A stretch of 16,956 nt of DNA from assembly GCA_036170655.1 (NCBI GenBank), contig JAVHPP010000043.1, positions 1-16,956 of the forward strand, in the 5' to 3' direction. Below the pieces are notes generated by a model, which worked only from the letters and a program-made list of their open reading frames with translations, searched no databases and had not been told where the DNA came from. Origin of the DNA: Candidatus Zixiibacteriota bacterium. Its GTDB lineage: Bacteria > Zixibacteria > MSB-5A5 > WJJR01. Numbering within the stretch: the stretch's first letter is position 1; each line of letters opens with the position of its first letter. Made by a program: the position numbers and the translations under genes. This document shows, piece by piece, positions 636-16,956 of this stretch.

Positions 636-699
636 GGTCTTCCCTCTTTGATGCCAATTCCCGGATTCCGACGGCGCAGGTCAACCCAGTGGGTCGCCT

Positions 700-1470: not shown

Positions 1471-1507
1471 TCCCCTCCCGATGACGCTGCGGTCAGGCCT
1501 TGAGAGC

Positions 1508-1531
1508 GGGCACGGCAAGCCGTGCCCCTAC
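1508..1531 (-). repeat. GTAG-family REP-like palindrome, copy 1
   Basis: Minus strand reads GTAG-GGGCACGGC-TT-GCCGTGCCC: a GTAG tetranucleotide followed by a perfect 9-bp stem, intergenic. Confidence 0.75.
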
Positions 1532-1557
1532 GCATAATTGATTGATCATCGAAAGAA

Positions 1558-1579
1558 GGCGCACGCCGTGCACCCCTAC
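1558..1579 (-). repeat. GTAG-family REP-like palindrome, copy 2 (variant)
   Basis: Minus strand reads GTAGGGGTGCACGGCGTGCGCC: same GTAGGGG head as copy 1 and an imperfect GC-rich stem. Confidence 0.65.
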
Positions 1580-1640
1580 ATTCCGGGTTATCATCCGTCC
1601 TATCCCTTGAGCCTTTAGTCATCGTCCGTTGCCTTTGTCC

Positions 1641-2396
1641 TCAGATGTACTGCCCACCGTCCACCTTGATGACTTCGCCGGTGATGTGGCGTGACCCATC
1701 GGAGCAGAGGAACAGCACGACCGCAGCGACGTCGTCACAGGTGCCGAGACGGCCGAGCACTGTCTCCGCCAGCGACTTCGTCTTCGCCTCTTCCGGCATG
1801 GTCGCGACCATGTCGGTTGCGATCAGACCGGGCGCGACCGCGTTCACGTTCACGTTGGCAGCGCCGAGTTCGCGCGCGAGCGTCTTGGTCAAACCAATAA
1901 TCCCCGCTTTCGACGCGGCGTAGTTGGCCTGCCCGAACTTCCCTCTCATGCCATTGATGGAGGTCATATTGATGATGCGGCCCGACTTTTGCTGACGGAA
2001 CACGGGGACCGCTGCACGAATAAAATTAAATGTCCCTTTCAGATTCGTATTGATGACGGCATCCCACTGCTCGTCCGTCATTTTCCAAGTGACACCATCG
2101 CGGTTGATACCCGCGTTGTTCACGAGAATGTCGAGGCCGCCGAAGTCAGCACGGACCGAGTTAACCATTTGCTGAACTTGCGGTGCGTTGGCGACGTCGC
2201 ACGCATAAGCATGGGCCCGTCCTCCGGCGGTTTCGATCGCAGCGGTCACGCTCTGCGCTTCGCTTTCGTGACGGCGGTAGTTGACGGCAACGCGGCAACC
2301 CTGGGCACCCAAGGCGCGGGCGATCGCGGCGCCGATACCCAATGATGCACCGGTAACAATCGCGACGCGATCCTTCAGTTCGGGATAGATTGTCAT
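1641..2396 (-). CDS. Short-chain dehydrogenase/reductase (FabG/3-oxoacyl-CoA reductase-like), 251 aa
   Basis: TGASLGIG, NNAG, YAASK and VDGG motifs. ATG 2396 overlaps the upstream TGA (ATGA), indicating translational coupling. Confidence 0.9.
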   Translation of the reverse strand: MTIYPELKDRVAIVTGASLGIGAAIARALGAQGCRVAVNYRRHESEAQSVTAAIETAGGRAHAYACDVANAPQVQQMVNSVRADFGGLDILVNNAGINRDGVTWKMTDEQWDAVINTNLKGTFNFIRAAVPVFRQQKSGRIINMTSINGMRGKFGQANYAASKAGIIGLTKTLARELGAANVNVNAVAPGLIATDMVATMPEEAKTKSLAETVLGRLGTCDDVAAVVLFLCSDGSRHITGEVIKVDGGQYI

Positions 2397-3373
2397 TGCC
2401 TGACCTGAGATGCGGGCGGGGTCAGGGCATGACCACACTGCCCACAGAAAGCAAACTCTGACGGGAGGGCATCGGCGCCGCACGACGGGCAAGTTACGGA
2501 GTACGATCCCCAGAGAAATTCGACGCTTCCGCCCTCAGCCATTTTGCGCCGCAACCCACGGTAGTCAACTTTGCGTTTTTGCACAAAGGCACGCATGCCT
2601 TCGTTGGGTTCGCCGCAGGCGAAATGTGTGGTCAGCCAGTCCCGGGCATGACCGATGGTTTGGTGCCAGGCCAGTTCCTTCCAGAAGTTGACCTGCGTAC
2701 GTGTATAGCGTGTGCACTCGGTGAACTTGTCGAGCAACTGCTGGACCAGTTCATCGACGGCATCATCCAGTTGCGCCCGCGGGACGACGCGGTTGACAAG
2801 TCCCCACTCGAGGGCTTGAGCTGCCGGGATGCGCTGGTTGAGCAGGAGCATCTCGCGGGCACGGCGGTCGCCGACCATGATCGGCAGCCATTGTGTCCCT
2901 CCGCCGCAGGCGACCGACCCGACATTGGTGCCGATCTGACCGACAAAGGTATCGTCGGCCATGACGGCGAGATCGCAGGCCATCTGCGATTCATTGCCGC
3001 CGCCGACGGCCATTCCGTTGATGCGGGCGATCGAGGGCTTGCCCAGGTTGAGAAGCGATTCCAGATACGCGCGGAACAGGCCCATGTACTTGTAGTAATC
3101 GCGCGGCCTCTTGGTGTAGTACGCCTGGTATTCCTTGACGTCGCCACCGGTGGAGAATGCTTTGTCACCGGCCCCAGTGTAAACGACGACCGCGATGGCG
3201 TCATCCCAGGCGGCATCGGTGAAGGCGGCGATCAGCTCCTTGAGGGCTTGCGTGTTGTAGGCATTGTAATGACCGGGCCGGTTGATCGTCACTCGCGCCA
3301 CCGGACCTTTCTTCTCGTACAGGATCTCGGTGAACCGGCAATCTGCGGGTTGGCGTGCCTCAAACAGATTCAT
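2393..3373 (-). CDS. oah: Crotonase-family ring-opening hydrolase, 6-oxocyclohex-1-ene-1-carbonyl-CoA hydrolase (Oah/BamA)-like, with C-terminal zinc ribbon, 326 aa
   Basis: GDKAFSTGGDVKEYQAYYTKRPRDYYKYMGLF resembles the Oah/BamA segment (TGGxxKEYxxYYxxxPxxYxxYMxLF). Also RINGMAVGGG and GSVACGGGTQWLP. Tail CPSC-x11-CGQC. ATG 3373 follows RBS GAGGAGG. Confidence 0.75.
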   Translation of the reverse strand: MNLFEARQPADCRFTEILYEKKGPVARVTINRPGHYNAYNTQALKELIAAFTDAAWDDAIAVVVYTGAGDKAFSTGGDVKEYQAYYTKRPRDYYKYMGLFRAYLESLLNLGKPSIARINGMAVGGGNESQMACDLAVMADDTFVGQIGTNVGSVACGGGTQWLPIMVGDRRAREMLLLNQRIPAAQALEWGLVNRVVPRAQLDDAVDELVQQLLDKFTECTRYTRTQVNFWKELAWHQTIGHARDWLTTHFACGEPNEGMRAFVQKRKVDYRGLRRKMAEGGSVEFLWGSYSVTCPSCGADALPSEFAFCGQCGHALTPPASQVRQ

Positions 3374-3441
3374 GCCACAAATCCTCCTCTTGTCCCATGT
3401 GACGCAGTTCGTTTTTACACCGAACGCGACCGGCGGAAGCA

Positions 3442-4047
3442 TCATGGTTCACGGTCAACCCCCTGCAAGAAAACCGTTGTCATCTGGCGCGCCAGATGTT
3501 CGGCGGGACCATCCGTGGCCGGTTTGTACCATGTGTAGATCCAGTTGATCATGCCAAAGAGAGCCATCGTAGTAATCCGGGGATCGAGATCGCGACGCCG
3601 CCGCGACTTGAGCAACTCGGCCACGATTCCAAGGCACAGGTTATAGTAACTGCGCCGCATGCGCCGCATCCGGCGTCCCATCTCCCCGTCCAGGGCTTCC
3701 GATTCATGCGAAAGGACCTTCATTTCGGTGATGTGAGCGGCGAAGAACTCCAGATGATTGCGGATCAGACGTTCGACCTTCTCTGCTGGCGTCGCCGCCG
3801 GGGAACACTGCGACAGGGGTCGGATCAATTGTTCGAAGGCGGCGCGCTGCAATTCATAGAGCAGTTCATCCTTACCGGCAAAATAGTGGTAGAGTCCCGA
3901 CAGACTCATCCCCGCGGCCCGGGCCAGATCCCGCATCGAGGCCCGCGCGAACCCCCGCTCGGCAAACAGCCGCGCTGCGGCAGAGCGCACACGGTCCCCC
4001 GGTGTTTCGACGTCAGGGTTGGATGTCTTGGTGGTCCGTCGCGGCAT
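3442..4047 (-). CDS. TetR/AcrR-family transcriptional regulator (KstR2/PaaR-like, probably acyl-CoA sensing), 201 aa
   Basis: HTH AARLFAERGFARASMRDLARAAGMSLSGLYHYFAGKDELL and C-terminal GMINWIYTWYKP. ATG 4047 with RBS GGAG; the track's TTG start at 4116 coincides with the -35 box. Confidence 0.9.
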   Translation of the reverse strand: MPRRTTKTSNPDVETPGDRVRSAAARLFAERGFARASMRDLARAAGMSLSGLYHYFAGKDELLYELQRAAFEQLIRPLSQCSPAATPAEKVERLIRNHLEFFAAHITEMKVLSHESEALDGEMGRRMRRMRRSYYNLCLGIVAELLKSRRRRDLDPRITTMALFGMINWIYTWYKPATDGPAEHLARQMTTVFLQGVDREP

Positions 4048-4064
4048 GGCATCTCCGGTGGAAC

Positions 4065-4082
4065 CGAGCGAACGTTCGTTCG
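4065..4082. promoter_or_regulatory. Putative TetR operator palindrome
   Basis: CGAGCGAAC|GTTCGTTCG (8 of 9 positions symmetric), lying between the -10 box and the tetR RBS. Confidence 0.7.
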
Positions 4083-4087
4083 AAGGC

Positions 4088-4116
4088 AATGTCGCCTGGC
4101 CGAGCTCTTGTGTCAA
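4088..4116 (-). promoter_or_regulatory. Putative sigma70 promoter of the tetR-oah-SDR-dch-had operon
   Basis: Minus strand TTGACA (4116-4111), 17-bp spacer, GACATT (4093-4088). Confidence 0.6.
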
Positions 4117-4178
4117 GGATGTTCATGACATTTTCTGCGAGAAACGAAAGGACAGACCCTCGAACATAACTAAATTAG

Positions 4179-5633
4179 TTACAATTGCGGAGGGACGGGA
4201 TCCCCGGGGCCTTCGCTCTCACCGGCGGCCTCTCCCGGAGAAGCGAGGCGATTACGCAGGGTCTGGCGTGAAATCCCCAAGAGACGCGCCGCGTGGACCT
4301 GATTGCCCCGTTCCCGCGCGAGCGCCCGCGCCAGCATCTCGCGTTCGAGGACTGGCAGGATCGGACATTGCGGGTCCTGGTCAAACTGCGCCGCCAACCG
4401 GCTGAAGACAGCGTCCAAAAGCGACTCTGCCTCCCAATCCTCACGGGAGATTTGGGGCGAAACGGCCTCACCCGCAAAAGAGACCGATTCCGGCAGCAAG
4501 GTTGGCCCTGTGGACACGATCAGGGCGCGGTCGATCACGTTCTCGAGTTCGCGGACATTCCCTCGCCACGAGTGCGCCATGATCTTGTCCATCGTCTCCG
4601 GCGGGATCTGATTGACCTGTCGGTCCCGGCGGCGGTTGCTGCGGGCGAGGAAGTAGCGAACCAGACGCGGGATGTCCTCGCGGCGTTCGTCCAGCGGCGG
4701 CAGCTCGATCGTGAAGACATTCAGACGGAAGTAGAGGTCCTCGCGAAAATGCCCTTCACGGATGAGTTGTGTAAGATCGCGGTGGGTGGCTGCGATGATG
4801 CGCGCATCGACGTGGATCGATTCGCTGCCGCCGACACGCTCCATCACCCCGTCTTGAAGAACACGGAGAATCTTGGCTTGGGTGCCCGGGCTCATGTCGC
4901 CGATTTCGTCGAGAAACAGGGTCCCGCCATTGGCGCGCTCAAATTTCCCCAGTCGGCGATGCTCAGCCGATGTGAAGGCGCCGCGTTCATGACCAAAAAG
5001 CTCGCTTTCCAGCAATCCTTCGGGGATGGCGGCGCAGTTGACTGCAAGAAAAGGCTTCTCGGCGCGGCGGGAATGGTGATAGATCGCGCGGGCGACCAGT
5101 TCTTTGCCGGTGCCGGAGGCGCCGCGAATCAGCACACTGGCATCAGACTGAGCCACCCGTCCAATCTGCTTGTACACCTCCTGCATGGCGCGCGATTGTC
5201 CGACCAGCGTGTCGGTATCGCCGACAGACTCCTCACCACCATCGAGCAGGTCGACCTTCCGGGTCATGAGACGATAGGCATTGGCCGCCTGTTCCGCGAG
5301 ACGTTTGATGTCGTCGACCTCGAATGGCTTGAGCACGAAGTCGTAGGCGCCGCGTTTGACCGCCTCGATCGCCACCTCGGTCGTGCCGAAGGCGGTGATG
5401 ACAATCACCGGAATCTTGTTGTCGATCTGCTGGACCCGGGAGAGCACGTCCATGCCCGACAAACCGGGCATGCGCAAGTCGAGAAAGATCACGGAATACG
5501 CGCCTGGGTGAATCCTGGCCAGCGCCTCTTCGCCCGAAGCGGCTTCGTCGATTTCGTAAAGTTTGGGATCGAGGAGGCGGCGGAATGCGAACCGCAGGTT
5601 CTTATCGTCATCAACGATGAGCACGTGATACAT
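4179..5633 (-). CDS. Sigma54-dependent response regulator (NtrC/AtoC/ZraR type: REC - AAA+ - Fis HTH), 484 aa
   Basis: REC: VDDD, FLDLRMPG (phosphoacceptor), VITAFG, KP. AAA+: GASGTGKE, ESELFGHERGAFTSA, LFLDEIG, FREDLYFRL, WRGNVREL. HTH: GNQVHAARLLGISRQTL. Confidence 0.95.
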   Translation of the reverse strand: MYHVLIVDDDKNLRFAFRRLLDPKLYEIDEAASGEEALARIHPGAYSVIFLDLRMPGLSGMDVLSRVQQIDNKIPVIVITAFGTTEVAIEAVKRGAYDFVLKPFEVDDIKRLAEQAANAYRLMTRKVDLLDGGEESVGDTDTLVGQSRAMQEVYKQIGRVAQSDASVLIRGASGTGKELVARAIYHHSRRAEKPFLAVNCAAIPEGLLESELFGHERGAFTSAEHRRLGKFERANGGTLFLDEIGDMSPGTQAKILRVLQDGVMERVGGSESIHVDARIIAATHRDLTQLIREGHFREDLYFRLNVFTIELPPLDERREDIPRLVRYFLARSNRRRDRQVNQIPPETMDKIMAHSWRGNVRELENVIDRALIVSTGPTLLPESVSFAGEAVSPQISREDWEAESLLDAVFSRLAAQFDQDPQCPILPVLEREMLARALARERGNQVHAARLLGISRQTLRNRLASPGEAAGESEGPGDPVPPQL

Positions 5634-7305
5634 GGGCCTCTTCCTTTCGCCGGCCGTGCAGGGTGATGATAAAACTGGTTCCCTTGTCTTCGTGGCCCTC
5701 TGCGCGGATCGTCCCCTGGTGTTTGTCCACGATGATGCTGGCGATGGACAGACCCAGCCCGGTACCGGTCGCCTTGGTGCTGAAGAACGGTTCGAAGATT
5801 CTCTCTTTGAGTTCGTTGGGCAGACCCGGCCCGGAGTTCCAGATTGTCACCGTAACGCCATCGTCGCCGTCGGGTGCGGTGGTCATCCGGATCTCGCCGC
5901 CGCGCGGGGTGGCCTCGACCGCATTGAGCAGGATATTGACGAAGACCTGACCGATCTGGTCGCTGTCAGCCCAGACAGTTCCCGCATGGGGGTCATATTG
6001 TTCGCTCAGTTGCACACCCTGAATCTGGACCTGCGGTCGCATCAGACTGGCGATGCGCGAGAGGGTTTCGTCCAGCCGCACGAGGGAAAATTCCGGCTCA
6101 CGCGGACGGGCAAATTGGAGGAAGCGCAGAACGAGCGCTTTGATCTTGTCAATCTCGGCCGCCACGATCCCGAGGTCGCCGTTCCTGACATCATGGGGGG
6201 GCGTTTGCTCACGCAACGAGTGAATCAGCACTTTGATGGTCGTCAGCGGGTTGTTGATCTCGTGGGCGACGGAGGCCGCCATCATGCCGACCGAAGCCAG
6301 ACGGTCGGCGGTGATCAATTGTTCGCTGGTTGTGCGGAGCGCAATCTCTCGTTTCTCGAGCTTTTGCACGGCGACACTCGCGAGGGTGGTTGCGGCGCCA
6401 ACGGCAATCAGAAGAATGATTCCCATCACGAACCAGAAAACACGTCGCAGACGGTTCAAGCCCGCGAAAACCTCGTCAGAATCCTGCTCGACCAGAATAG
6501 TCCATCCCAGTGACGGAAGCCGCTGGTAAGCGCCGAGCATCACGGCGTCACGGGCGTTACGATACCGCAGGATGCCTGCCAGGTTGCCATTGTTCTGGTG
6601 TACGCCCAGCGAGCCGGGCCAGCGTATGCGGGCGCCCTGTTCAACGCAGTTCAGGGCGAGTCCTGTGGAATCAAAGAGAAACACCCGCAGTTTCTCACCG
6701 GCGAGACCGTCGTCCAGTAGTTGATACATGGGACCGGGTGAGACAACTCCAAGGATGAAGGCACGGCGTGTGCCATCGCGATCAACAACCGGCGCATAGA
6801 TGGGCAACTCGGCGCGGGTAGTGTCTGGACTCAGCCGGTGGGTGGCAACAAATGTTTGCCCGGTTTGAATGGCTGTGAGACCATCATGGTCGGGGATCGA
6901 GGAAAAGGTACTGGGCGCACGCCACTCCCCGCTGTTAGCGAAGACAGCAATCGATCGATAGCGGCCGCCGAAGACACCCCGCACACGGTCGAGCACGTCG
7001 GCAAGAGAGTCTACGGCGGGACCATCACCGGCGTCCGCACGTTTCACCCAATGATTGATCGAGGCAAGATGGCCAACTGCCGCCAGATCAAACTCGCGTT
7101 CCCCAACCCAATCTCGGAGCCGCGCGGCCTGATCGGTGGCCAAGGTGGTCAGCCGAATCTCGACTTCGCTGGTGATCGATCCGCGGGCGCCCCAGAAGAG
7201 TGCCAGACCGGCGATGAGGACGGGCACACAGATCATACCCACGAGCAGCATGACAACTGTGAACCGGAGCCGTTGATAAGGGGATTTGGGGAGCGAGATC
7301 GGCAT
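5611..7305 (-). CDS. Membrane sensor histidine kinase (2 TM, Cache-like extracytoplasmic domain, HisKA, HATPase); start uncertain
   Basis: Two hydrophobic TM stretches, a Cache-like end (GAYQRLPSLGWTILVEQD), H box AHEINNPL, N box NILLNAVEA, F box FEPFFSTK and G2 GTGLGL. Overlaps the regulator start by 23 bp. Start could be ATG 7305 or further upstream (track start 7404). Confidence 0.92.
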   Translation of the reverse strand: MPISLPKSPYQRLRFTVVMLLVGMICVPVLIAGLALFWGARGSITSEVEIRLTTLATDQAARLRDWVGEREFDLAAVGHLASINHWVKRADAGDGPAVDSLADVLDRVRGVFGGRYRSIAVFANSGEWRAPSTFSSIPDHDGLTAIQTGQTFVATHRLSPDTTRAELPIYAPVVDRDGTRRAFILGVVSPGPMYQLLDDGLAGEKLRVFLFDSTGLALNCVEQGARIRWPGSLGVHQNNGNLAGILRYRNARDAVMLGAYQRLPSLGWTILVEQDSDEVFAGLNRLRRVFWFVMGIILLIAVGAATTLASVAVQKLEKREIALRTTSEQLITADRLASVGMMAASVAHEINNPLTTIKVLIHSLREQTPPHDVRNGDLGIVAAEIDKIKALVLRFLQFARPREPEFSLVRLDETLSRIASLMRPQVQIQGVQLSEQYDPHAGTVWADSDQIGQVFVNILLNAVEATPRGGEIRMTTAPDGDDGVTVTIWNSGPGLPNELKERIFEPFFSTKATGTGLGLSIASIIVDKHQGTIRAEGHEDKGTSFIITLHGRRKEEAHVSRAHR

Positions 7306-7490
7306 CGGGATCGACAGGTGTTGTCGGCCGGACAGAGTGCCTGCCAGACGGCGGACACGCAGGCCCACACCTTCTAATGTGTGCAATTTAGGACCGGCAG
7401 ACAATCAGGAGATAAAGAAATGCCGAGGCCATGCGGGCGCTCGTACGCCCGCACGACCCCGGCCGCGAGGTTTCAGGCTGGGAGGCGGGC

Positions 7491-7664
7491 CTACTTGGCC
7501 ATCGCCGCCTGATCCTGACCGAGCGAACGTGAGTACGCCACATGGAGGTCACGGTAGGTCGTGCGGAGCGATACTCCACAGGCCTTGGCGATTTCCTCGA
7601 GCGGCATTTGCCGATTGGTCCAGAGCAGTTGGTGCACCAGATTGATGCGTTGCTTGCGGTTCAT
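7491..7664 (-). CDS. Small stand-alone HTH protein (HTH_11/DeoR-like, resembling the N-terminus of WYL regulators), 57 aa
   Basis: MNRKQRINLVHQLLWTNRQMPLEEIAKACGVSLRTTYRDL contains the EIAxxxGVSxRTxYRD pattern. RBS GGGAGG before ATG 7664. Confidence 0.7.
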   Translation of the reverse strand: MNRKQRINLVHQLLWTNRQMPLEEIAKACGVSLRTTYRDLHVAYSRSLGQDQAAMAK

Positions 7665-7761
7665 CGTTCCTCCCATAGGTGAGACTGTTCGGGTTAAAAG
7701 TTGTCTGCCTCTGCTTTCAGCTCCAAGTCAGTGATCCATGTGGTATGACGCCAAGCGCTGC

Positions 7762-7956
7762 CTACACGCGCCCGGGGTCGGCTGGTCTTTTCGGGCGAAG
7801 GTCTTCATCCCGTGGCGATACATCCTTTGTCGAGTGAATGAGTTCGCCTCCATCAGATAACTCAGCCCAACAGTGCGGGCAATAGTGTCCTCCGGGCACG
7901 TTGCAGAGGAGCCAGTCGCTTTCTGTCAGCTTACTTGAGCATCGTGGACATTGCAT
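7762..7956 (-). CDS. Small zinc-ribbon protein (CPRC...CPHC), 64 aa
   Basis: MQCPRCSSKLTESDWLLCNVPGGHYCPHCWAEL...; strong RBS GGGAGG before ATG 7956; lies directly downstream of a sigma54 promoter. Confidence 0.7.
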   Translation of the reverse strand: MQCPRCSSKLTESDWLLCNVPGGHYCPHCWAELSDGGELIHSTKDVSPRDEDLRPKRPADPGRV

Positions 7957-7990
7957 CGCGGCCTCCCAAACAACCGTCACAGACAGTGCC

Positions 7991-8006
7991 AGCAACCGTC
8001 GTGCCA
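7991..8006 (-). promoter_or_regulatory. Sigma54 (-24/-12) promoter
   Basis: Minus strand TGGCACGACGGTTGCT matches the consensus TGGCACGNNNNTTGCW. Predicted TSS ~7980, 24 nt before ATG 7956. Confidence 0.85.
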
Positions 8007-8100
8007 CCGCGCAATTCCGACAGATTATCACGTAACGAATTACACGCCTTTGCATTAGAGTGAATTGAATACTGCGTCGCAGTCCCTGCTCCGAGCCGGC

Positions 8101-8148
8101 CGCCAATTTTTAGACAGAATGCCTAATCTTGTTGTCAAAAAGTGGACA
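8101..8148. promoter_or_regulatory. Pair of putative enhancer (bEBP UAS) sites
   Basis: CGCCAATTTTTAGACA (8101-8116) and TGTCAAAAAGTGGACA (8133-8148): TGTC-N8-GACA-type dyads with AT-rich cores, 32 bp apart, about 120-170 bp upstream of the sigma54 TSS. Confidence 0.6.
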
Positions 8149-8407
8149 CCAAAAGCGATCCGGGTCGGCTGTGCAGACAAGACCGCTGGATGACGTAGCG
8201 GAGCCGCTTTCCGTCTTGGTATCTGGTTTGCGTTTATGCTTGACAGCCTTCAGGGACTGAAAAGCAGCCCGTCTTAGGCGGGCAGTACAATTGAATGAAG
8301 GCCAAAGGGATGCGAAGATTGGGACAAGCACCCCAGAGAGCAGGCAGACAATGGCTGGTCAACGGTTTGCGGATTCTATGAATATGAATTATCTCAGCGG
8401 TGGTAAC

Positions 8408-8436
8408 TTGACAAAAGCGCCTTCAAGTGCTACATT
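8408..8436 (+). promoter_or_regulatory. Putative sigma70 promoter of giant protein gene 1
   Basis: TTGACA (8408-8413), 17-bp spacer, TACATT (8431-8436), with an extended -10 TG. Confidence 0.65.
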
Positions 8437-8759
8437 GGTGAGTGTTCGTGAAGAACTTAGGAGGATCGAACGTACTCCATTATACCGCAATCGATTACTG
8501 TCTGGGACGGGTGTCACGCAGCCAGCCCCGCTGGCATTGCAAAGCCACCTTGCCCGAGGCGACTCGACCAGTAGAACAAGTCTCTACTACCGGGTCAGCA
8601 ACACAAAGTGGGCTGGCTCAGCCCATCACAGGATGATTCAAGAGTCTTTCGCGAGCCGGGGGGCTTGCGTCCAATTTCTCGCGTGGGCGAAGACTTTTTG
8701 TGGCACTCAGTGCGGATTCCCGGGGGTGACGCTTGAATAATGTCTGCTCAGGAGGCGCG

Positions 8760-11700
8760 TTGCGTAAATTCCCTTTGATCCTTCGCGTGGCTGGTCTGGC
8801 TCTTTTTGTGATGATCGCCATGTGGCCACCGGCACAGGCCACAATGCCAGCGTCCAACCTGTCAACAGAACAGTCGGAGACGAGACCAGGGGTGATCGCC
8901 GATTCCCTGTCGCAGATCGCCGCCGGTTACTACGTTGCCGAACCTTCGGTACAAACCATTCTCGACGAAGCGGCGCCGGGCCTGTCGGCAGCGAGAGACG
9001 AGCGAGTGTCGGAATGGTTCTGCACGCCTCCGGGCATGGTCGTGGTCCGGGTCGTGGCCAGGTATAGTAATGCGTCCCGTGAAAATGGTGTTGGGTGGTA
9101 CTCGATCCATTCGCCTTCGGACCCGCTCGTTGTGCTGCCACCGTCTGTCCAGGTGGGCGATTCGGCCGTGTTCTTTTTGAGCGCTGGCGACTCGCTCGGA
9201 TGGACGTTGATTCGTACCTCCGGGAGCTCATGGCGCAGCCAAATGGCGCTTAATCGCGACAGGCAGTCCCATGTCAAGGTCTACCAGACCGCGAATCCGG
9301 AAGAGTATCTCCTGTTCTGGGAAGATCTTGGCGGCCTGACCGACAATGATTTCAATGATTTGGTGCTGCTGGTCCGCCTGCCGGTCAGCGCCCCCAAGCT
9401 GTCGGTCACACCGATGCGGACACCCGGTCTGCGATGGCGTCCGGGTACTCCCATCGACTTGAGCATTACTGCGAGTCACTACGATTGTGACAACGATTCC
9501 TTGACGCTGAAATTGGTCGATGGTCCCGGCACATTTGGCGGGGCACGTGGCATCGGGCTGGTCAAAGGCCAGCACCAATTTACTCCTCCAGCAACCGGCT
9601 TGTATTCGTTCGTCTTCGCGGCCAAGAGCAGCGCGGGAGCGTCAGCGTACGACACATTGACGCTGGGCGTGAACGCACCGCTGACCCCGGAGATCTCTAT
9701 CAACATGAACAACACGATGACGATTTGCCGTCCGGAGACCGTCTGTGTTCCGTTTCACGTTCTCAGTCCCTGTCCGTTGAGTGGATTCCGGACCAGTTCA
9801 CCGGCGTTTGTCAAGTTGCCGGACAGTTCGCTGTGCATTTATGTTGACCGCACGAGCAGTTTCTCTGTCAGTCTGGTGGCGCTCGATCAGTGCGGCGGCA
9901 AGGATTCCGTCCGGGTGGGCTTCAACATCACGCGGAATCAGCCAGCGGCGGTAATCGCCCCAAGTGTGATCGATACGCTGCTATGCAAGGCCAGCTGGAT
10001 ATGTATTCCCATCGGTGTCACCGGGACCGCGCCAGTCAGCGTCAGCGCGGTCTCCCCTGCCGTCTACAATGCCAACACGAAGACCGTTTGCTACAAGGTG
10101 AACACTCCGGGGACGCATCACGTGAAGATGATTGCCGCCAACAGTTGCGGGCCGGAGACCACCGTGACGGAGATCCACGCGGTGTTCAACTCGCCGCCGA
10201 CGATCTCCGGCATTCCCAATGACACGGTCAAGGTTTGCCAGACAAGCGGGCCGTATTGCTTTGGGCCAATCACGTGCAGTGATCCAGACGGGAATGGGAA
10301 CGGTTGCCTGCTGGGGCAGTGTCCCGGATCGTTTGACGGACAGTATTGGTGCTACACACCGTCAGGCCCCGGAACCGTGGTCGCCCTCTTTTACTCCAGC
10401 GATGCCTGCGGCGCCGTGACCCTGGACACATTGATCATCCGGTTCGGCGCGGGCAGCGTCAAGCCGAATATCACGTTCACCGACGTGGCGGCAAAGCTCT
10501 GTGCACCAGATTCGGTTTGTGTTCCGTTTTCCATCTCGAATCCAAGCCAACGCCCGCTGCATCTCTCCTTGTCTGGCGTGGGCGCGTTGCATGCGAACGA
10601 CTCCACTGTTTGCCGCATGATCAGTGCAGCCGGTATCTACACAGTTAAGCTCATCGCGACAGACGATTGCGGAAGCGCTGATACGGCGCAGGGTCAGATC
10701 ACCGCGACGATGAACCAGGCACCTGTGGTCGCCTGCACACCGCCGGCAGCAACGACCATCTGTGCGGGCGCGCCGGCGTGTGTGCGGTACACGGCTTCTG
10801 ACACCGATGGCGGCCTCCTGCGGATCGACATCGACGCCGGCGGAACGAAAATCGTGCGACAGGCATTCTCCCCCACGACGGATTCTGCCTGTATCAATGT
10901 CACACAGCCCGGCGCTCAGACCGTACGCGTCATTGTGACGGACTCGTGCGGAGCGGCCGATACGTGCACGTCGATATTCACCATGACGGTCAACACGCCT
11001 CCCACCGCTTCCGTTCGCGACACGGCAATCAATCTTTGCAGTCCACAGTCGATCTGCATTCCATACAGTTGTTCCGACCCGGATAACAATCTTGTGTCCT
11101 GCGCGGCCTCCGGTACAAAATCCGGAACGGCAAATGGGACGACTTTCTCTTTCACACCGGACACCGCCGGTGTCTATCGCGTGACCGTGCTGGCCACCGA
11201 TGCTTGCGGACAGACGAGTCAGAAGATCGCCAATGTTGACGTGCGCTACAACGCGGCGCCGACGATCACATTGACGGACTCGATCATCTTCAACGCGACC
11301 GACAAGGAAACGGTGTGTGTCAGCTATACGGCCACCGATCCGGAAGGAAAACCGCTCACAATTGCGAACATCGGCGGCATCTTGCGGACCGCGACGCACC
11401 AGTTCTGCGTAGTGGCGAGCGCTGGCAATGTTGTCTGCGGACGGATCATTGCCACGGACCCGTGCGGCAAGGCCGACACATCCCAATTGTGTGTCCAGAC
11501 GATCGCGAACCCGACACCCAAACCGAACATTCCTGACACCATCCGGACACGCTTCTGCGGCACCGGCGATGTCTGCGTACGCTTTTCCCTCGGCCCTTCT
11601 AATTGTCCGCCGTTGACGCTGTCGGCGCTTAATGGCGGGGTGGTGCACACGCAAGATTCGACTTTGTGCCTCATGGTGTACGGACCGGGGACCTATCTCA

Positions 11701-14700
11701 CGGGCTTGGTTGCACGGGACAACTGCGGCGCCGAGACGACGATCGTGATCATCCAGGTGAAGGCCAACAACCGACCAGTAATTGTCTGCCCGCAACCCGA
11801 AGTGTTCCGGATCTGCCACGATACGACCATCTGCCTGATCGTGGCCTACGCCGATCCAGACAGCAATTTCGCCAATGCGTCGGTATCGTACGGCACGGTG
11901 GCGCCCGCCTTCAAAGGGCTCTTCAAAGTGTGCATGCCGGTCGACACGAGCGGATGGTACACATCGCGGCTGATCGTACGGGATTCGTGCGGCGCGGCCG
12001 ACACCTGTGACCTCGCGATGCGTGTGTTGCGCAACACGCCGCCGAAAGTCCTGATGCCCAATGACACAGCCCTGTTCCTCTGCTTCCCGCGCGAACTGTG
12101 CTTTCCGGTCAGTTGTTTCGACCCGGATTACAACATTGTACAGTGCGGCCCTGTCAGCCTTGGTGATGCTCACTGGGACGGGACCAGTCTCTGCCTAACG
12201 CCCATCGCCAATGGAACTTATCAATGGGTATTTACGGTGCTGGACGCCTGCGGGGCGCTCGCGGTGGACACATTCCGGGTCACAATTCAGCTCAACCGTC
12301 CGCCGACGATCACGGCGCCGCCCAGCACCCATTTTGTGCTGTGCCAACCGGAGACCGTGTGTGTGCCGTTCACGGTTTCTGACCCGGACGGGGGAACCTT
12401 GATCGTCCTTTCGGACAAAGGTGTCGTCCGTAACGGTCAAGTCTGCCTCTATCGTCAGACCATCGGGACAGAGAACGTCCAGTTGATCGTGAAGGACTCC
12501 TGCTGTTTTGCGGACACGACAACCATCGCAGTCACATTCGATCTGAATGCGCCGCCGACGGTAACAGCGCCGGGAGATTTCACTCGCAATGTCTGCGGGC
12601 TGGGCCAGGTCTGCTTCGGTGTGAACATCCATGATGACCGGCCCCAGTGGACAGCGTCGGTCGCGCCGATTGGCGTCTTCAATCCCACCGATACGACCGT
12701 GTGTTTCTATGCGGATACATCGGGGACGTACCGATTGATCGTTACGGCCACCGATTCCTGCAAAGCCATATCGTCCGACACAGTCAATGTCCGGGTGAAC
12801 TTCAACCATGCGCCGGTGGTTGTTGCGCCGAGCAGCACGCCGTTGACCGCCTGCAGCCCCGGAACGGTCTGCGTGGGCGGAATCTCGGTTACCGATCCAG
12901 ATGGCAATTTGAAACGCACCTACCTGACCGCCGGCACCGGCACGCTCGACGTCCCGGCGGGGACACTCTGCTTTGCCGCCAGCACGTCGGGGACATACTG
13001 TTTTGACATCACGGCCGAGGATTCCTGCGGGACCACAAGCACGCGGCGCATGTGTGTCGTGGTGTCGCTGAACCATGCGCCAACCGTTACGATCAGCGGC
13101 CTGCCGACAACAGCGTTGTACCTGCACCCGACACAAGTCTGCTTTAGCGTGGGGGCAACCGATCCGGATCCGGGGCAGCTCTTTGATCTGCAAATGGTTG
13201 AGGGCGCCGGTGTGTTCACGCGCCAGATCGGACGGTCGAGCATCAATGCGCAGCATTGTTTCACGGCTGACACGACCGGCTGTTACCGGTTCATTTTTGC
13301 GACCGCCGATTCGTGCGGCCTTGCTGGCCGCGACACGGCGACGATCTGTATCCGGATCGAGCCGCCCGATTCGCTATTTCAGATCTGCATCGATACGGTT
13401 CAGTCGCTGAGCGGCCGTAATGTCACGGTCAAGACACGCGGCATTCGCCTGATGGAGATGGGCGGGTACAACTTCCTCATCTGCTATGACCCGACCATGC
13501 TGCACTTTGTCGAGGCCGCTCCGGACACTGCCTTGTCACAGTGGGAGTACTTTACTTTCCGCATCGGCTCGGGGACGAATTGCCTGCCCTGCGGTACCGG
13601 GGTTATCCGTCTGATCGGGATTGCGGACATGAACAACGGTTCACCGCACCCGCCGACAGAGGCCTTCCTGCCGAAGGGTCCGATGCACAACCTCACCTTT
13701 TTCGTGACCGCCGACCGGACATTCATCAATATGTGCGGGGCGGTACGGTTCTGCTCATACGAGTGCGGCGACAACACGATCTCGAGCCGTTCGGGGGACA
13801 CGCTGTATACGGCGTTCACCGGCGTGGCCGACTCCTGCTTCCGGGGCCCCAAGAACATTCCGGTCCGGGCCATCGATTTCTGCGACGGGAGTGTCTGCAT
13901 CATCCCGCCGCCAGACGACCGCGGTGACATGAACTTGAACGGGATCGCCAACGAAGTGGCCGATGCAGTCCTGTACAGCAACTACTTCATCTATGGCCTC
14001 AAGGTCTTTGATCCGATTTACAAGGAGAACCAGATCCTGGCGTCGGATGTGAACTGCGACGGTCTTGTTCTCACCATCTCCGACCTCGTGCGCATGATTC
14101 GTATCGTGACTGGCGAAGACCAGGCACAAGGGTGCCCCGGTGGTCCGGCGAAGGTTGTCGCCGCCGAATACCGGGCGACGGTGACGGCAGAACGGGAGTC
14201 GGGACGGCTCACGGTGTACGTAACCGGCGAGACGGACTTGGGTGGTGTCTTTGTCCGCCTGACAACCAAGAGAGGCAAAGTGAGCCCAATAACATGGGCC
14301 GCTGATTTGGGAGGGCTGACGTCCTACCAGAGTGTGGGGGACGGAGAGGTGCGGGCGCTATTGGTCGCGCGGCGCTCCGGCACAAAGCTGGCGAGCGGTA
14401 CCCACCTTCTGTTCACAATGCCTTGGGATGGAGTGGGAGAATGCCAGGTGCAGGACGCTCAGGCGTCGACCGTCATGGGTGATTTCGTCGAGACCGAGCT
14501 CCTCAACAAGGGAACCGGCATCCCGGCATCATTTGATCTGGAGCAGAACTACCCGAACCCGTTCAACGCCAGCACACAGATTCGCTTCAGCCTGGGTTCG
14601 CCAGCCAAGTGGGACCTGACGATTTTCAACGTACTGGGGCAGCCGGTACGACAGTTCCAGGGGACGAGCGAGCCCGGGCTCGTCACTGTTGAATGGAACG

Positions 14701-14801
14701 CAACCACAGATGATGGGGCTGCTGTCGCGTCGGGGATTTACTTCGCCCGTCTTAAGGCAGGCGACTTCACCGCCACGAAGAAAATGGCGCTTCTAAAGTA
14801 A
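8760..14801 (+). CDS. Giant secreted multidomain protein, 2013 aa: signal peptide, DUF4114-like domain, 15 Ig-like repeats (14 Cys-rich), cohesin-like, dockerin-like, beta domain, FlgD-Ig/T9SS-type C-terminal domain
   Basis: TTG 8760 follows RBS AGGAGG and gives a signal peptide MRKFPLILRVAGLALFVMIAMWPPAQA. FWEDLGGLTDNDFNDLV is DUF4114-like. Repeats follow N-x-x-P...C...C...SDPD...C...G-x-Y...D-x-CG. Paired GDMNLNG/SDVNCDG Ca-loop motifs. C-terminus LEQNYPNPFN...IFNVLGQ...VASGIYFARL...KKMALLK. Confidence 0.9.
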   Translation: MRKFPLILRVAGLALFVMIAMWPPAQATMPASNLSTEQSETRPGVIADSLSQIAAGYYVAEPSVQTILDEAAPGLSAARDERVSEWFCTPPGMVVVRVVARYSNASRENGVGWYSIHSPSDPLVVLPPSVQVGDSAVFFLSAGDSLGWTLIRTSGSSWRSQMALNRDRQSHVKVYQTANPEEYLLFWEDLGGLTDNDFNDLVLLVRLPVSAPKLSVTPMRTPGLRWRPGTPIDLSITASHYDCDNDSLTLKLVDGPGTFGGARGIGLVKGQHQFTPPATGLYSFVFAAKSSAGASAYDTLTLGVNAPLTPEISINMNNTMTICRPETVCVPFHVLSPCPLSGFRTSSPAFVKLPDSSLCIYVDRTSSFSVSLVALDQCGGKDSVRVGFNITRNQPAAVIAPSVIDTLLCKASWICIPIGVTGTAPVSVSAVSPAVYNANTKTVCYKVNTPGTHHVKMIAANSCGPETTVTEIHAVFNSPPTISGIPNDTVKVCQTSGPYCFGPITCSDPDGNGNGCLLGQCPGSFDGQYWCYTPSGPGTVVALFYSSDACGAVTLDTLIIRFGAGSVKPNITFTDVAAKLCAPDSVCVPFSISNPSQRPLHLSLSGVGALHANDSTVCRMISAAGIYTVKLIATDDCGSADTAQGQITATMNQAPVVACTPPAATTICAGAPACVRYTASDTDGGLLRIDIDAGGTKIVRQAFSPTTDSACINVTQPGAQTVRVIVTDSCGAADTCTSIFTMTVNTPPTASVRDTAINLCSPQSICIPYSCSDPDNNLVSCAASGTKSGTANGTTFSFTPDTAGVYRVTVLATDACGQTSQKIANVDVRYNAAPTITLTDSIIFNATDKETVCVSYTATDPEGKPLTIANIGGILRTATHQFCVVASAGNVVCGRIIATDPCGKADTSQLCVQTIANPTPKPNIPDTIRTRFCGTGDVCVRFSLGPSNCPPLTLSALNGGVVHTQDSTLCLMVYGPGTYLTGLVARDNCGAETTIVIIQVKANNRPVIVCPQPEVFRICHDTTICLIVAYADPDSNFANASVSYGTVAPAFKGLFKVCMPVDTSGWYTSRLIVRDSCGAADTCDLAMRVLRNTPPKVLMPNDTALFLCFPRELCFPVSCFDPDYNIVQCGPVSLGDAHWDGTSLCLTPIANGTYQWVFTVLDACGALAVDTFRVTIQLNRPPTITAPPSTHFVLCQPETVCVPFTVSDPDGGTLIVLSDKGVVRNGQVCLYRQTIGTENVQLIVKDSCCFADTTTIAVTFDLNAPPTVTAPGDFTRNVCGLGQVCFGVNIHDDRPQWTASVAPIGVFNPTDTTVCFYADTSGTYRLIVTATDSCKAISSDTVNVRVNFNHAPVVVAPSSTPLTACSPGTVCVGGISVTDPDGNLKRTYLTAGTGTLDVPAGTLCFAASTSGTYCFDITAEDSCGTTSTRRMCVVVSLNHAPTVTISGLPTTALYLHPTQVCFSVGATDPDPGQLFDLQMVEGAGVFTRQIGRSSINAQHCFTADTTGCYRFIFATADSCGLAGRDTATICIRIEPPDSLFQICIDTVQSLSGRNVTVKTRGIRLMEMGGYNFLICYDPTMLHFVEAAPDTALSQWEYFTFRIGSGTNCLPCGTGVIRLIGIADMNNGSPHPPTEAFLPKGPMHNLTFFVTADRTFINMCGAVRFCSYECGDNTISSRSGDTLYTAFTGVADSCFRGPKNIPVRAIDFCDGSVCIIPPPDDRGDMNLNGIANEVADAVLYSNYFIYGLKVFDPIYKENQILASDVNCDGLVLTISDLVRMIRIVTGEDQAQGCPGGPAKVVAAEYRATVTAERESGRLTVYVTGETDLGGVFVRLTTKRGKVSPITWAADLGGLTSYQSVGDGEVRALLVARRSGTKLASGTHLLFTMPWDGVGECQVQDAQASTVMGDFVETELLNKGTGIPASFDLEQNYPNPFNASTQIRFSLGSPAKWDLTIFNVLGQPVRQFQGTSEPGLVTVEWNATTDDGAAVASGIYFARLKAGDFTATKKMALLK
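9387..13373 (+). repeat. Array of 15 protein-level Ig-like repeats of ~84-100 aa
   Basis: Approximate repeat starts: R0 9387, R1 9681, R2 9936, R3 10188, R4 10455, R5 10713, R6 10992, R7 11250, R8 11508, R9 11766, R10 12033, R11 12294, R12 12546, R13 12804, R14 13071. Divergent at the DNA level. Confidence 0.85.
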
Positions 14802-14832
14802 TCCGCTCAGAGACAATGCCTTATATGAGAAC

Positions 14833-14870
14833 CAGGGCGTCGGAAAGAGAACTCGCGGCGCCCTGTTTGT
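14833..14870 (+). terminator. Possible intrinsic terminator after giant gene 1
   Basis: Stem CAGGGCGTCG (14833-14842) / CGGCGCCCTG (14856-14865, one G-U pair), followed by TTTGT. The U tract is short. Confidence 0.5.
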
Positions 14871-14929
14871 CTGGTCGTTGGTCGACATTGATTCGCCTCA
14901 ATTCGACATGAGTTTTTTCTGATAACCCC

Positions 14930-14957
14930 TTGACAATTCTGGGGAGTAGGTTACATT
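14930..14957 (+). promoter_or_regulatory. Putative sigma70 promoter of giant protein gene 2
   Basis: TTGACA (14930-14935), 16-bp spacer, TACATT (14952-14957): the same hexamers as the gene 1 promoter. Confidence 0.55.
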
Positions 14958-15184
14958 TGCACTGGTCGGGAATGGATGCCCGGCGCGTTTGTCGTGATTA
15001 TTACTCGCTCTTGGTGGTAATGAGAATCTGAAGATCGACTGCTTGACTTGTCGCGCGTCCGAAGGGATCGGCCGTATCGGCAAGGAAAGAGCAACACGTT
15101 ACGCTACGTTTAGCAAGATACATTGGCAGCGTCAATCGAATCAGAAGGAGTCACCCTTAGAACCTTAGCGAGAGATTTCCAGCC

Positions 15185-16956
15185 ATGTCTCACAACGCGT
15201 GCTCTCCCCGTCGCCGCGCACGATCAGGCCAACGCCTTGGCGTTGTTGTTCTCGGGATTCTTCTCAGCATCTCCATAACCGGCGTGGCATCGGCCTTCTA
15301 TTGGCCCCCCACCAACATTCCGCCCGGTCCGCCGCCGAATTACAACGGCACGGACACGTCGTATTTCGGCGGCGCCCCCTCGCTGCCGCTGCCGCCGCCC
15401 GACAGCGGCGGGGTCTATGTCTATCGCGACTCGGTCAACGGTTCTTGGACGGTCGCCAACCACATCTATTCGGCGGGAAACTCCCTGGAACAATTCCACG
15501 GCTCGATTCTGGCGTTGATGACCGAGCCACCCCAGTTGAACGTGAACGTCTTCATTCAAGGGTTCGAACTCTGGCGTGACACGACCGCGAACAAATGCCT
15601 GCTGGAGAATGACCGTTGGGGATGGGCACGCTGGGATACAAGCGGGCTTTATGAAATCTGGTGGGACGTCACGACCAAGGAGTGGAAGAACGGCGCGGGC
15701 GATCCCAACGACTTTCTCAAGTTCAGTTTGCAGGGTTGTGCAATTGATTTCAATGTGTGGTCGAGCGGGCATTCCAGTCCCTTCGGCGCGAATCAGATCT
15801 ACTTGGGGCGGAACAAGATTCCATTGTCGAGCGTTGCCGGCTGGACAGATTTCGGCAGCTTCCAGACACTTGATCCATATCAGGCCGCCGTGGGCTCCAA
15901 CCCAACGTCCGACCCCAACACGAGCATTTTCACCCACTACACGGGTCCCGGCGAATCCTACAACCTGCTCGGAAAGATTCTGGGAACCGACAGCTACCCC
16001 TGCGACCTTTCGTACGGAACACACTACAGCGGCGCCTTTGTGTATCAAGGAGACGGGATTCAGTTTTCGACGGAATGCCTGAATCATCCGCCGCGTCTGA
16101 CGATCACACGTGACACCACGCTCTTCCTCTGCACACCACAGGAAATCTGTATCGGGATGCACGGGGAGGACGACGACCACGACCGGTTGCGCCTGTCCAA
16201 GCTGTCGGGACCGGGGGCTTTTTCGAAGATTACATGCGATTCCACCATCGACTCGGTCTACTGCTTCACGCCTGATTCGTCCGGTGTCTATTGTTCGGTT
16301 TTCGAACTGGATGACGATGCGTTTCTCAACAGCATCGCCGAAGGTGACGATGACATCGACACGATTTGCGTTACGGTGTATCTGAACGCGCCGCCCAATG
16401 TGACGGGCCCACTGGACAAGAATGTTTCTCTCTGCTCGTTGCCCGCAACTATCACCGTCAAGCCGTTCTCCTTCAGCGACCCGAACAACAACATCCAGTC
16501 GAAGACAACTAACAAGGGGACACTGGCCGGAGACTCGGTGGTTTACACGGCAACTACCAGCATGCCGGACACGATCATTGTGACGGTCACCGATTCATGC
16601 GGCGCCATCGACAAAGATACCGTAATCGTGACCAAGACGGTCAACGGGGCGCCGATAATCGCCTTCGGGAATGATACGACAGTGGCCCAGTGCGCGGCCG
16701 CCCCGATCTGCGTGGCCTACACCGTGTCCGACCCCGATGGACTGACCGGTCTGGTGGAGACGCTGGTCTCCGGTCCAGGGTCGATTGACACGCTAAACAA
16801 CAAGGTTTGCTTCACCCCGGCGGGCGCCGGCAGTTACACGATCGTAGGCAAAGTGACTGATGCTTGTGGCGCCACTGACTATGACACCGTAGTCGTCACC
16901 GTTGACATGACGAAGCCGGTGTTGAGCTGCGCCGGTGATGAACTGACCTGCGACAG
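15185..16956 (+). CDS. Second large secreted Cys-rich Ig-repeat protein (paralogous stalk, different N-terminal domain); truncated by the window end
   Basis: Not in the ORF track because no stop lies in the window. The frame is open from ATG 15185 (in-frame TAG at 15158) to the end: MSHNACSPRRRARSGQRLGVVVLGILLSISITGVASA|FYWPPTNIPPGPPP..., a ~260-aa Trp/Pro-rich domain, then repeats NHPPRLTITRDTTLFLCTPQEIC..., NAPPNVT...TDSCG..., NGAPIIAFGNDTTVAQC...TDACG. Confidence 0.88.
   Translation, partial: MSHNACSPRRRARSGQRLGVVVLGILLSISITGVASAFYWPPTNIPPGPPPNYNGTDTSYFGGAPSLPLPPPDSGGVYVYRDSVNGSWTVANHIYSAGNSLEQFHGSILALMTEPPQLNVNVFIQGFELWRDTTANKCLLENDRWGWARWDTSGLYEIWWDVTTKEWKNGAGDPNDFLKFSLQGCAIDFNVWSSGHSSPFGANQIYLGRNKIPLSSVAGWTDFGSFQTLDPYQAAVGSNPTSDPNTSIFTHYTGPGESYNLLGKILGTDSYPCDLSYGTHYSGAFVYQGDGIQFSTECLNHPPRLTITRDTTLFLCTPQEICIGMHGEDDDHDRLRLSKLSGPGAFSKITCDSTIDSVYCFTPDSSGVYCSVFELDDDAFLNSIAEGDDDIDTICVTVYLNAPPNVTGPLDKNVSLCSLPATITVKPFSFSDPNNNIQSKTTNKGTLAGDSVVYTATTSMPDTIIVTVTDSCGAIDKDTVIVTKTVNGAPIIAFGNDTTVAQCAAAPICVAYTVSDPDGLTGLVETLVSGPGSIDTLNNKVCFTPAGAGSYTIVGKVTDACGATDYDTVVVTVDMTKPVLSCAGDELTCD

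Follow-up and report, generated by a model that had tools for sequence, protein, structure and literature searches.

A single contig of Candidatus Zixiibacteriota bacterium (GenBank assembly GCA_036170655.1, contig JAVHPP010000043.1, positions 1 to 16,956 of the forward strand) carries an open reading frame (ORF), P0001 (8733..14801, + strand), whose translation is a giant surface protein of 2,022 amino acids (aa) with a long array of immunoglobulin (Ig)-like repeats. The whole stretch of 16,956 nucleotides, referred to here as the window, is an entire contig of a 2.6-Mb genome bin estimated to be 100% complete. Pfam and NCBIfam matches identify P0001 as a type A cargo for a type IX secretion system (T9SS). 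Its C-terminus is a type A sorting domain (TIGR04183; 14550..14786, + strand; 46 bits, cut-off 23), its first 36 residues (8733..8840, + strand) read by eye as a signal peptide-like segment with basic residues, a hydrophobic run and the motif AQA, and the genome encodes the translocon protein SprA (SprA_N, 130.8 bits at C33:5621-6910) together with 32 sorting-domain matches, 31 of which exceed the family cut-off. The N-terminal head contains a DUF4114 domain (PF13448; aa 151–215, 9183..9377, + strand) that scores 26.9 bits on the whole protein, slightly under the cut-off of 27, and 32 bits on the excised head. Downstream of the head lie the repeats, R0 to R14. The arrangement of their four core cysteines, C1 to C4, read together with covariation across homologous repeats, makes it likely in our judgement that C2 and C3 are bonded within a domain, that C1 of repeat n is bonded to C4 of repeat n+1, and that P0001 thereby forms two laddered runs, R1-R7 and R8-R14, with one junction between them that carries no such staple.

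Segmentation, MAFFT and alignment to a profile hidden Markov model (HMM) resolved 15 PKD/Big_9-like repeats of ~87 residues each at 9387-13361, with family scores of 53.7 bits for Big_9 (cut-off 23.6), 43.5 for PKD_4 (27), 36.5 for K319L-like_PKD (27) and 25.0 for PKD (23.5); significant Big_9 stretches cover only 3 of the 15. An earlier note on this DNA had placed the end of the array at 13373 and the R7/R8 boundary near 11508; the alignment puts them at 13361 and 11510/11511, respectively. The core cysteines occupy HMM columns 16 (C1), 22 (C2), 53 (C3) and 72 (C4), and the cysteine table drawn up in that note is right in every detail. C1 is missing solely in R0, R7 and R14, and C4 solely in R0 and in Q1, a repeat of the second ORF of the same family, P0002 (15185..16954, + strand), which is open at its 3' side at the contig end and carries repeats Q1–Q3 at 16085-16909. 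A cysteine in the loop after C2 occurs solely in R1 (C347) and R8 (C958), the only two repeats that follow a neighbour without C1; two loop cysteines placed at random among R1–R14 would fall on R1 and R8 with a chance of 1 in 91. The repeats of P0002 obey the same rule: Q1 has C1 and no C4, with one further single cysteine inside an insertion, and Q2 has lost both C2 and C3 while keeping C1 and C4.

The remaining cysteines of the array come mostly as pairs, at columns 7/78 in R5 and R9, 27/37 in R3, R6 and R10, 63/81 in R7 and R13, and 61/83 in R14. Single cysteines were confirmed in R0 (C252), R3 (C530), R6 (C775) and R11 (C1258). R0 itself (9387..9674, + strand) is a divergent first repeat with none of C1 to C4. 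The single cysteine of R6 is C2 itself, left without a partner because Ser806 (codon TCT, 11148..11150, + strand) stands at the C3 position, where the aligned orthologues have cysteine; the serine may have arisen by a recent loss, or it may be a variant of the assembly. Altogether the mature protein contains 88 cysteines, a count that depends on a crude call of the start and of the signal peptide.

The rule was examined in a family-wide set. A repeat profile was built from the 17 complete repeats of the window, and all repeats were aligned to one 87-column model. A profile search of 1.84 billion proteins gave 19,441 matches at E <= 0.001, and 559 at E <= 1e-30. The set taken forward consisted of the best 150 representatives (<=50% identity), 20 giant ORFs taken from 17 same-class relatives and the ORFs of the genome itself, amounting to 178 proteins, 2,811 repeats and 2,216 junctions. 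When cysteines are scored strictly by column, C1 and C4 are present at frequencies of 0.813 and 0.815, and C2 and C3 both at 0.712. C2 and C3 of the same repeat are coupled with a phi of 0.978 (19 of 2,529 discordant), as expected from the intradomain pairing that had been proposed for them. C1(n) and C4(n+1) are coupled across the junction with a phi of 0.882 (38 of 2,216 discordant), compared with 0.673 for C1(n) and C4(n) (167 of 2,529 discordant) and 0.600 for C4(n) and C1(n+1). Some 154 junctions, from 13 Cys-free arrays, have neither partner, and these inflate every phi equally while leaving the discriminating counts below unaffected. When every pair of Cys columns is compared, only 22-53 and 63-81 score above 16(n)-72(n+1), which comes third with 0.912; the controls 16(n)-72(n+2) and 16(n)-72(n) reach 0.773 and 0.714. 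The pair 16(n)-72(n+1) is also the top inter-domain pair over all residue types by mutual information with average product correction (MI-APC).

The earlier note would have counted its reading as refuted had homologues shown C1(n) and C4(n+1) to be uncoupled; the opposite was observed. With a tolerance of one column either side, which applies to all junction, discriminating-case and array-end counts, C4(n+1) is present after a C1-bearing repeat in 2,043 of 2,044 junctions, the sole exception being a truncated alignment. The most telling junctions are those in which neighbours differ. Where repeat n has C1 and repeat n+1 does not, all 68 cases, from 55 proteins, have C4(n+1). A junction with C4 only on the n+1 side has C1(n) in 64 of 70 cases, and one with C4 only on the n side is without C1(n) in 21 of 22. 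The array ends behave in the same directional manner: first repeats have C1 without C4 in 43 cases and C4 without C1 in 2, and last repeats have C4 without C1 in 35 cases and the opposite in none. The 150 representatives alone give 49 of 49 discriminating cases, 39 vs 1 for first repeats and 26 vs 0 for last repeats. Shuffling the order of repeats within arrays (205 arrays, 1,857 junctions, 2,000 shuffles) yields a mean of 93.6 mismatches (sd 4.2, minimum 78) against 10 observed; in the same arrays, 105 repeats have one of C1 and C4 without the other, and the reverse direction gives 106 mismatches.

These counts bear directly on the simplest alternative, in which C1 and C4 are bonded within one repeat and the effect of the neighbour reflects shared ancestry or a misplaced repeat boundary. 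Such a bond would account for the co-occurrence of C1(n) and C4(n) and for Q2, which retains just these two of the four; yet the within-repeat mismatches exceed those across the junction tenfold (105 vs 10), C4 tracks the upstream C1 in every one of the 68 discriminating cases, and the array ends are asymmetric in a manner that the bond would not produce. Nor can the boundary be shifted so that one 87-residue unit contains C1(n) and C4(n+1) but leaves out C4(n). The alternative is thus already contradicted by the counts, and the fold of the repeat makes it scarcely credible.

The fold was modelled with AlphaFold2 (AF2) for R6-R9 from 137 aligned four-repeat windows, with strands assigned by DSSP. 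The model has a mean predicted local distance difference test (pLDDT) of 92.5 and a predicted template-modelling score (pTM) of 0.51. Each repeat has 7–8 strands in the order A-A'-B-C-C'-E-F-G, of the PKD/Ig type. In R8, strand A' covers model residues 182-187 with C1 at 188, strand B covers 191-196 with C2 at 194, and strand E covers 223-228 with C3 at 225; strand F ends at 242, C4 follows at 244 in a two-residue F-G turn, and the cap cysteine, as we call the loop cysteine after C2, is part of the B-C loop. The adjacent strands B and E run antiparallel and hold C2 and C3 in register, and the 63/81 pair is symmetric around the F-G turn. The other covarying pairs (7-78, 5-76, 27-37, 37-68 and 63-81) likewise connect neighbouring strands. 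Cys37 has either Cys27 or Cys68 as its partner, one of them being present in 346 of 353 repeats and both in 1, so that this position has two alternative partners, in two repeat subtypes.

The model shows a PKD/Big_9-type β-sandwich, whose termini would lie at opposite poles, given the odd strand count. Judged from this fold, the A'-B turn would sit at the C-terminal pole and the F-G and B-C loops at the N-terminal pole. C1 and C4 would then occupy opposite poles because of the odd number of strands in the PKD/Ig topology, so that a bond between them within one domain would have to span the whole bead, which would rule it out. For the same reason, C1(n) and C4(n+1) would face each other across the junction, with the cap cysteine adjoining C4.

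The cap cysteine provides a further test of the predicted pairing. The codon of C347 (9771..9773, + strand) lies in the B-C loop of R1, and that of C958 (11604..11606, + strand) in the B-C loop of R8; their predicted partners are the C4 residues of the same repeats, C387 and C998. The earlier note had read these as compensating for the missing upstream C1, and the family bears this out: of the 18 repeats whose C4 is orphaned by the lack of C1 upstream, 11 have a cysteine somewhere in columns 29-34, against 8 of the 2,043 in which C4 has its partner. A second, independent class of cap is formed by a cysteine at column 31 (in the motif TDNCD) in first repeats of another repeat subtype, where it is found in 13 of 131 first repeats and in 0 of 2,024 partnered repeats. 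At the other end of the arrays, last repeats that keep C1 have cysteines at columns 40 and 65 in 26 and 27 of 169 cases, against 1 and 8 of 2,024; these may be the C-terminal counterpart of the cap.

Applied to P0001, the family rule predicts 12 staples, drawn schematically as |======|======, with the bonded residues 139-154 aa apart. The first run, R1-R7 (9675..11510, + strand), would hold six (C332-C472, C418-C559, C502-C646, C590-C739, C677-C825 and C769-C911), as would the second, R8-R14 (11511..13361, + strand), whose last repeat lacks C1 (C942-C1086, C1028-C1173, C1117-C1257, C1204-C1343, C1288-C1432 and C1374-C1528). The R7/R8 junction (11505..11516, + strand) has no predicted staple: R7 is without C1, and R8 has the cap cysteine and no DxD loop, a feature of the B-C loop discussed below. 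Among named genomes of the collection, the nearest relative, a Candidatus Zixiibacteriota genome, shows 68% identity. In all seven orthologue rows the same junction is kept, with a C1-less repeat bearing an extra F-G cysteine pair followed by a capped repeat and then by a run of seven repeats. The N-terminal run has 7 repeats in five of these rows and 9 in the other two. Of the two seven-domain rods proposed earlier, the cysteine pattern and the break between the runs stand. The runs may act as rigid rods and the R7/R8 junction as a hinge.

Across the family, stapled runs extend from 2 to 28 repeats, and internal breaks are rare, with ~38 among ~2,060 junctions of stapled arrays. Seven was considered as a special rod length and rejected in view of this range; it is the commonest run length above 1 (33 runs), in a count that includes orthologues. 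The F-G cysteine pair is commoner in repeats that end a run, being present in 14 of 52 such repeats against 134 of 1,840 others among the 150 representatives; in the window it is found in R7 (11253-11510) and in R13-R14 (12807-13361).

The residues surrounding the predicted staple also covary. In the MI-APC ranking, the next inter-domain pairs link Asn87 of the linker of repeat n with Asp29 and Asp70 of repeat n+1, Asp70 being the aspartate of the DxCG motif, and Asn87 is also coupled with Asp31 and Asn/Asp33 of n+1; an example of this coupling between Asn87 and the DxD loop lies at 12297-12806. Being evidence of a kind that involves no cysteine, these couplings would independently place the F-G and B-C loops of n+1 against the end of n. 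The Asn/Asp cluster resembles what we take to be a cadherin-type Ca2+ site beside the staple. Eleven of the 15 repeats of P0001 have the DxD loop; R1, R2, R4 and R8 are without it, which includes both capped repeats, R1 and R8.

The Asn87 couplings also help to decide whether the bonds run within one chain. If parallel chains were offset by one repeat, disulfides between C1(n) of one and C4(n+1) of another would build a cross-linked bundle, and the same covariation and end effects would be seen. Several single cysteines, together with a cohesin and a dockerin-like module near the C-terminus that could gather chains, are compatible with such an arrangement, and the grappling-hook stem protein GhpA is, in the available part of its description, a seven-stranded bundle (10.1101/2024.01.29.577165). 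The topology of the fold and a linker of only 2-3 residues nevertheless bring both positions together in cis, and the couplings of Asn87(n) to the loops of n+1 fit a cis interface. In GhpA, moreover, the disulfides are described in that text as intramolecular and the contacts between strands as hydrogen bonds. We therefore consider cross-linking between chains very unlikely.

Another view accepts that the junction cysteines meet and holds that they stay reduced, or bind a metal or some other ligand, as might suit an anoxic habitat and an envelope without a known thiol oxidase. Several observations that weigh against disulfides fall to its side. Pfam searches for DSBA, DsbB, VKOR and Thioredoxin_4 found none of them in the genome of the window, estimated to be 100% complete, where only a DsbD-type membrane domain was recovered (G000:C3:40608-41243), and they are hardly found in 40 relatives: across the 41 genomes, VKOR occurs in 0 and Thioredoxin_4 in 3. 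These genomes nonetheless encode repeats with paired cysteines by the dozen. T9SS cargo of the window's genome with complete 5' ends shows no bias towards even numbers of cysteines (27 proteins: 11 even, 12 odd, 4 without any, by a crude count). Finally, the covarying acidic cluster at the same junction makes ions likely nearby.

Other points also weigh against the disulfide ladder. The 11 capped cases are mostly orthologues of P0001 and amount to about two events, a recognised cap is missing in 7 of the 18 orphan-C4 repeats, and it is present in just 17 of 132 first-in-array repeats that have C4. The parity test is moderate: among 93 interior repeats with exactly one predicted staple cysteine, the total is odd, as expected, in 61 and even in 32. 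Unpartnered core cysteines are frequent at array ends, with C1 in 147 of 204 last repeats and C4 in 114 of 181 first repeats, although array ends as drawn may differ from the true ends. P-values overstate independence, because repeats and homologues are related. As for the hinge, the block of model residues 171-180 at R7/R8 has a pLDDT of 83, compared with 95 and 93 at the stapled junctions, a dip that is a weak hint at most.

Set against the reduced or metal-bound state is the strictly pairwise nature of the coupling (phi 0.98 for C2-C3 and 0.88-0.91 for the staple), together with the one-for-one replacement of a missing partner by the cap, which is the signature of a disulfide; a metal site usually calls for 3-4 ligands. 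Bacteroides thetaiotaomicron, taken as a control, gives no match in the four Pfam searches either, so the missing-oxidase result deserves little weight. Periplasmic disulfides are documented in T9SS-bearing Bacteroidota, as far as the accessible portions of two reports go (PMC12635249; PMC12365241), and bonds of this type are present in the solved structure of GhpA, according to the available text (10.1101/2024.01.29.577165). On balance, we hold it improbable that the cysteines are left reduced or bind a metal.

Disulfides within domains and across junctions thus remain our preferred reading, and a coherent mechanical picture can be drawn from them. The far pole of repeat n (the end of A' and the start of B) would abut the near pole of n+1 (the F-G turn and the B-C loop), where the two thiols would meet across the junction, beside a 2-3-residue N-x-P-P linker. 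In R1 and R8, where the upstream C1 is missing, the B-C loop cysteine would instead pair with C4 of the same repeat. Tension would pass from C4(n) to C1(n) and on to C4(n+1), sparing strands A/A' and G and the linker, and the C2-C3 bond would shunt most of the remaining loop. Owing to the staples and this shunt, each bead would be nearly inextensible and the tilt and twist of each junction would be restrained. The thiols would be oxidised either while still in the periplasm, ahead of export by the T9SS, or extracellularly. In the finished chain, the cohesin/dockerin-like module and the T9SS anchor would lie at the base, and the DUF4114 head would be kept well away from the cell.

This basal part of P0001 begins directly after R14 with a cohesin-fold domain (aa 1544-1723, 13362..13901, + strand), recognised by Foldseek on an AF2 model: target-normalised template-modelling (TM) scores against type I cohesins are 0.78-0.83 at a root-mean-square deviation (rmsd) of 2.9-4.2 Å, among them 5nrm_A (0.83, rmsd 4.0 Å) and 1aoh_A (0.80, rmsd 2.9 Å). 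Its sequence support is weak, with a profile E of 0.004 and a Pfam Cohesin match in 5 of 20 aligned homologues. A dockerin-like helical segment follows (aa 1738-1792, 13944..14108, + strand). Its helices are residues 195-249 of the model, with low to middling pLDDT, and the one dockerin match, of profile positions 187-245 to 3ul4_B, is weak (E 0.045). Between it and the sorting domain lies a β-sandwich seen in the AF2 model and by DSSP (aa 1813-1927, 14169..14513, + strand), to which no family was assigned. By phmmer, the C-terminal module of ~400 aa (13362-14513) is present in most of the 178 family proteins. With both a cohesin and a dockerin in the same chain, fibres might bind one another.

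Elsewhere in the genome, P0002 (15185-16954), G000:C48:1-505 and G000:C147:7055-7579 are repeat proteins of the same family that are cut at contig ends, so the complete set of such proteins in this genome is not assembled. Upstream of P0001, the window encodes genes with no obvious connection to it: a two-component sigma-54 pair, a TetR regulator, enoyl-CoA hydratases and a short-chain dehydrogenase/reductase. The two-component pair, a sigma-54-dependent response regulator and a Cache-domain histidine kinase, lies at 4179-7404 on the minus strand, divergent from the giant gene.

Among the closest known systems is GhpA, the stem protein of the grappling hooks of Aureispira sp. As described in the available part of the source, this T9SS substrate contains 52 Ig-like repeats, in which intramolecular disulfides join nearby Ig-like domains, for example Cys2988-Cys3140, 152 aa apart, and its authors tie these disulfides to the straight, rigid stem (10.1101/2024.01.29.577165). 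P0001 is likewise a giant T9SS cargo with successive Ig-like domains, and the span of 152 aa falls within the 139-154 aa predicted here. Covariation supports interdomain disulfides of the GhpA type in P0001, where they are predicted. As far as these comparisons show, the likeness is one of general architecture: GhpA (PDB 9fly_A, residues 4587-4930) matches the four-repeat model with Z 9.5 (rmsd 13.0 Å, 319 residues aligned, rank 45), below extended cadherin and titin arrays at Z 11-12. GhpA belongs to a different phylum, and no GhpA chain is among the 28 PDB profile matches at E <= 10. In the part of its description available to us, neither a cap cysteine nor a conserved unstapled junction is found.

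The interdomain disulfide as a principle is therefore already known from one solved T9SS fibre. Beyond GhpA, the present case brings another repeat family in another phylum, a connectivity rule that ~2,000 junctions support, a cap acting in cis, a conserved joint without a brace, and the missing oxidase. Our literature search returned no paper describing interdomain disulfides in tandem Ig-like adhesins, PKD domains, T9SS proteins, fibrillar adhesins or Zixibacteria. Among solved structures, a search for the same cysteine pattern with the repeat profile found only Cys-less PKD and CDHL domains, and a three-repeat sequence gave 0 matches.

By sequence, the repeats belong with the PKD (PF00801, PF18911), K319L-like PKD (PF22352) and Big_9 (PF17963) families, which they match above the cut-offs and with which they share the strand order. 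The solved sequences that come nearest are those of collagenase PKD domains, and Atlas look-alikes carry PKD/Big_9 families. Unlike the repeats of P0001, the nearest solved PKD and CDHL chains have no cysteine at the C3 and C4 positions in the alignments, and to our knowledge the PKD and Big_9 Pfam families have not been described with the four-cysteine pattern.

Extended Ig-like beads with stiffened junctions are also a feature of cadherins and of the extender regions of RTX adhesins, such as MpIBP RII (PDB 4p99) and an Aeromonas protein (PDB 6xi1), as the accessible portions of the reports describe them (PMC4083281, PMC7493085). Among the best structural matches to the four-repeat model are protocadherins (Z 12.2), 4p99 (Z 10.0) and 6xi1 (Z 9.3). 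In those proteins, to judge from the same portions, the brace is Ca2+ only, and RTX adhesins are exported by the type I secretion system, whereas P0001 has a cysteine pair at the junction and is a T9SS cargo. The P0001 junction may bind Ca2+ as well, as suggested by the motifs of its covarying, conserved Asn/Asp cluster. The C-terminus of P0001 is a T9SS sorting domain, and Pfam/NCBIfam scans found no RTX family in it.

Covalent side-chain bonds in Ig-like stalks are otherwise known from Gram-positive adhesins with isopeptide, ester or thioester bonds. In the adhesin of Mobiluncus mulieris, each such bond stays inside a single domain, as does a disulfide that joins strands 2 and 5, and the linker between domains is described as flexible in the available part of that report (PMC10619420). 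The predicted bond of P0001 differs in crossing the junction. Ig-like surface fibres are known to be stiffened by Ca2+ or strengthened by isopeptide or ester bonds inside beads, and a bond across the junction would be a different solution.

A bolder interpretation can be put forward, which we regard as doubtful: that surface fibres of up to 28 beads are built by a whole lineage devoid of all known periplasmic thiol oxidases, that their junctions are double-braced by the C1(n)-C4(n+1) disulfide and a cadherin-like Ca2+ site, and that a conserved junction without either brace, its C4 capped in cis, acts as a built-in hinge. If this were true, the disulfides would have to arise by a route of oxidative folding that has yet to be described, or by self-oxidation once the T9SS has exported the chain, and the chain would be mechanically near-inextensible, a design not so far described in Ig-like stalks of bacteria. 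The family also raises the question of how dozens of cysteine pairs per protein become oxidised when searches for DsbA, DsbB and VKOR in the lineage gave no match. The family itself yields a testable rule, which states which cysteine bonds which, how the chain ends behave and how a missing partner is compensated. With ~2,000 natural examples, whose runs count 2 to 28 beads, sequence alone would suffice to predict how long a rod is and where it can flex, and the same rule may serve as a design rule for inextensible protein rods.

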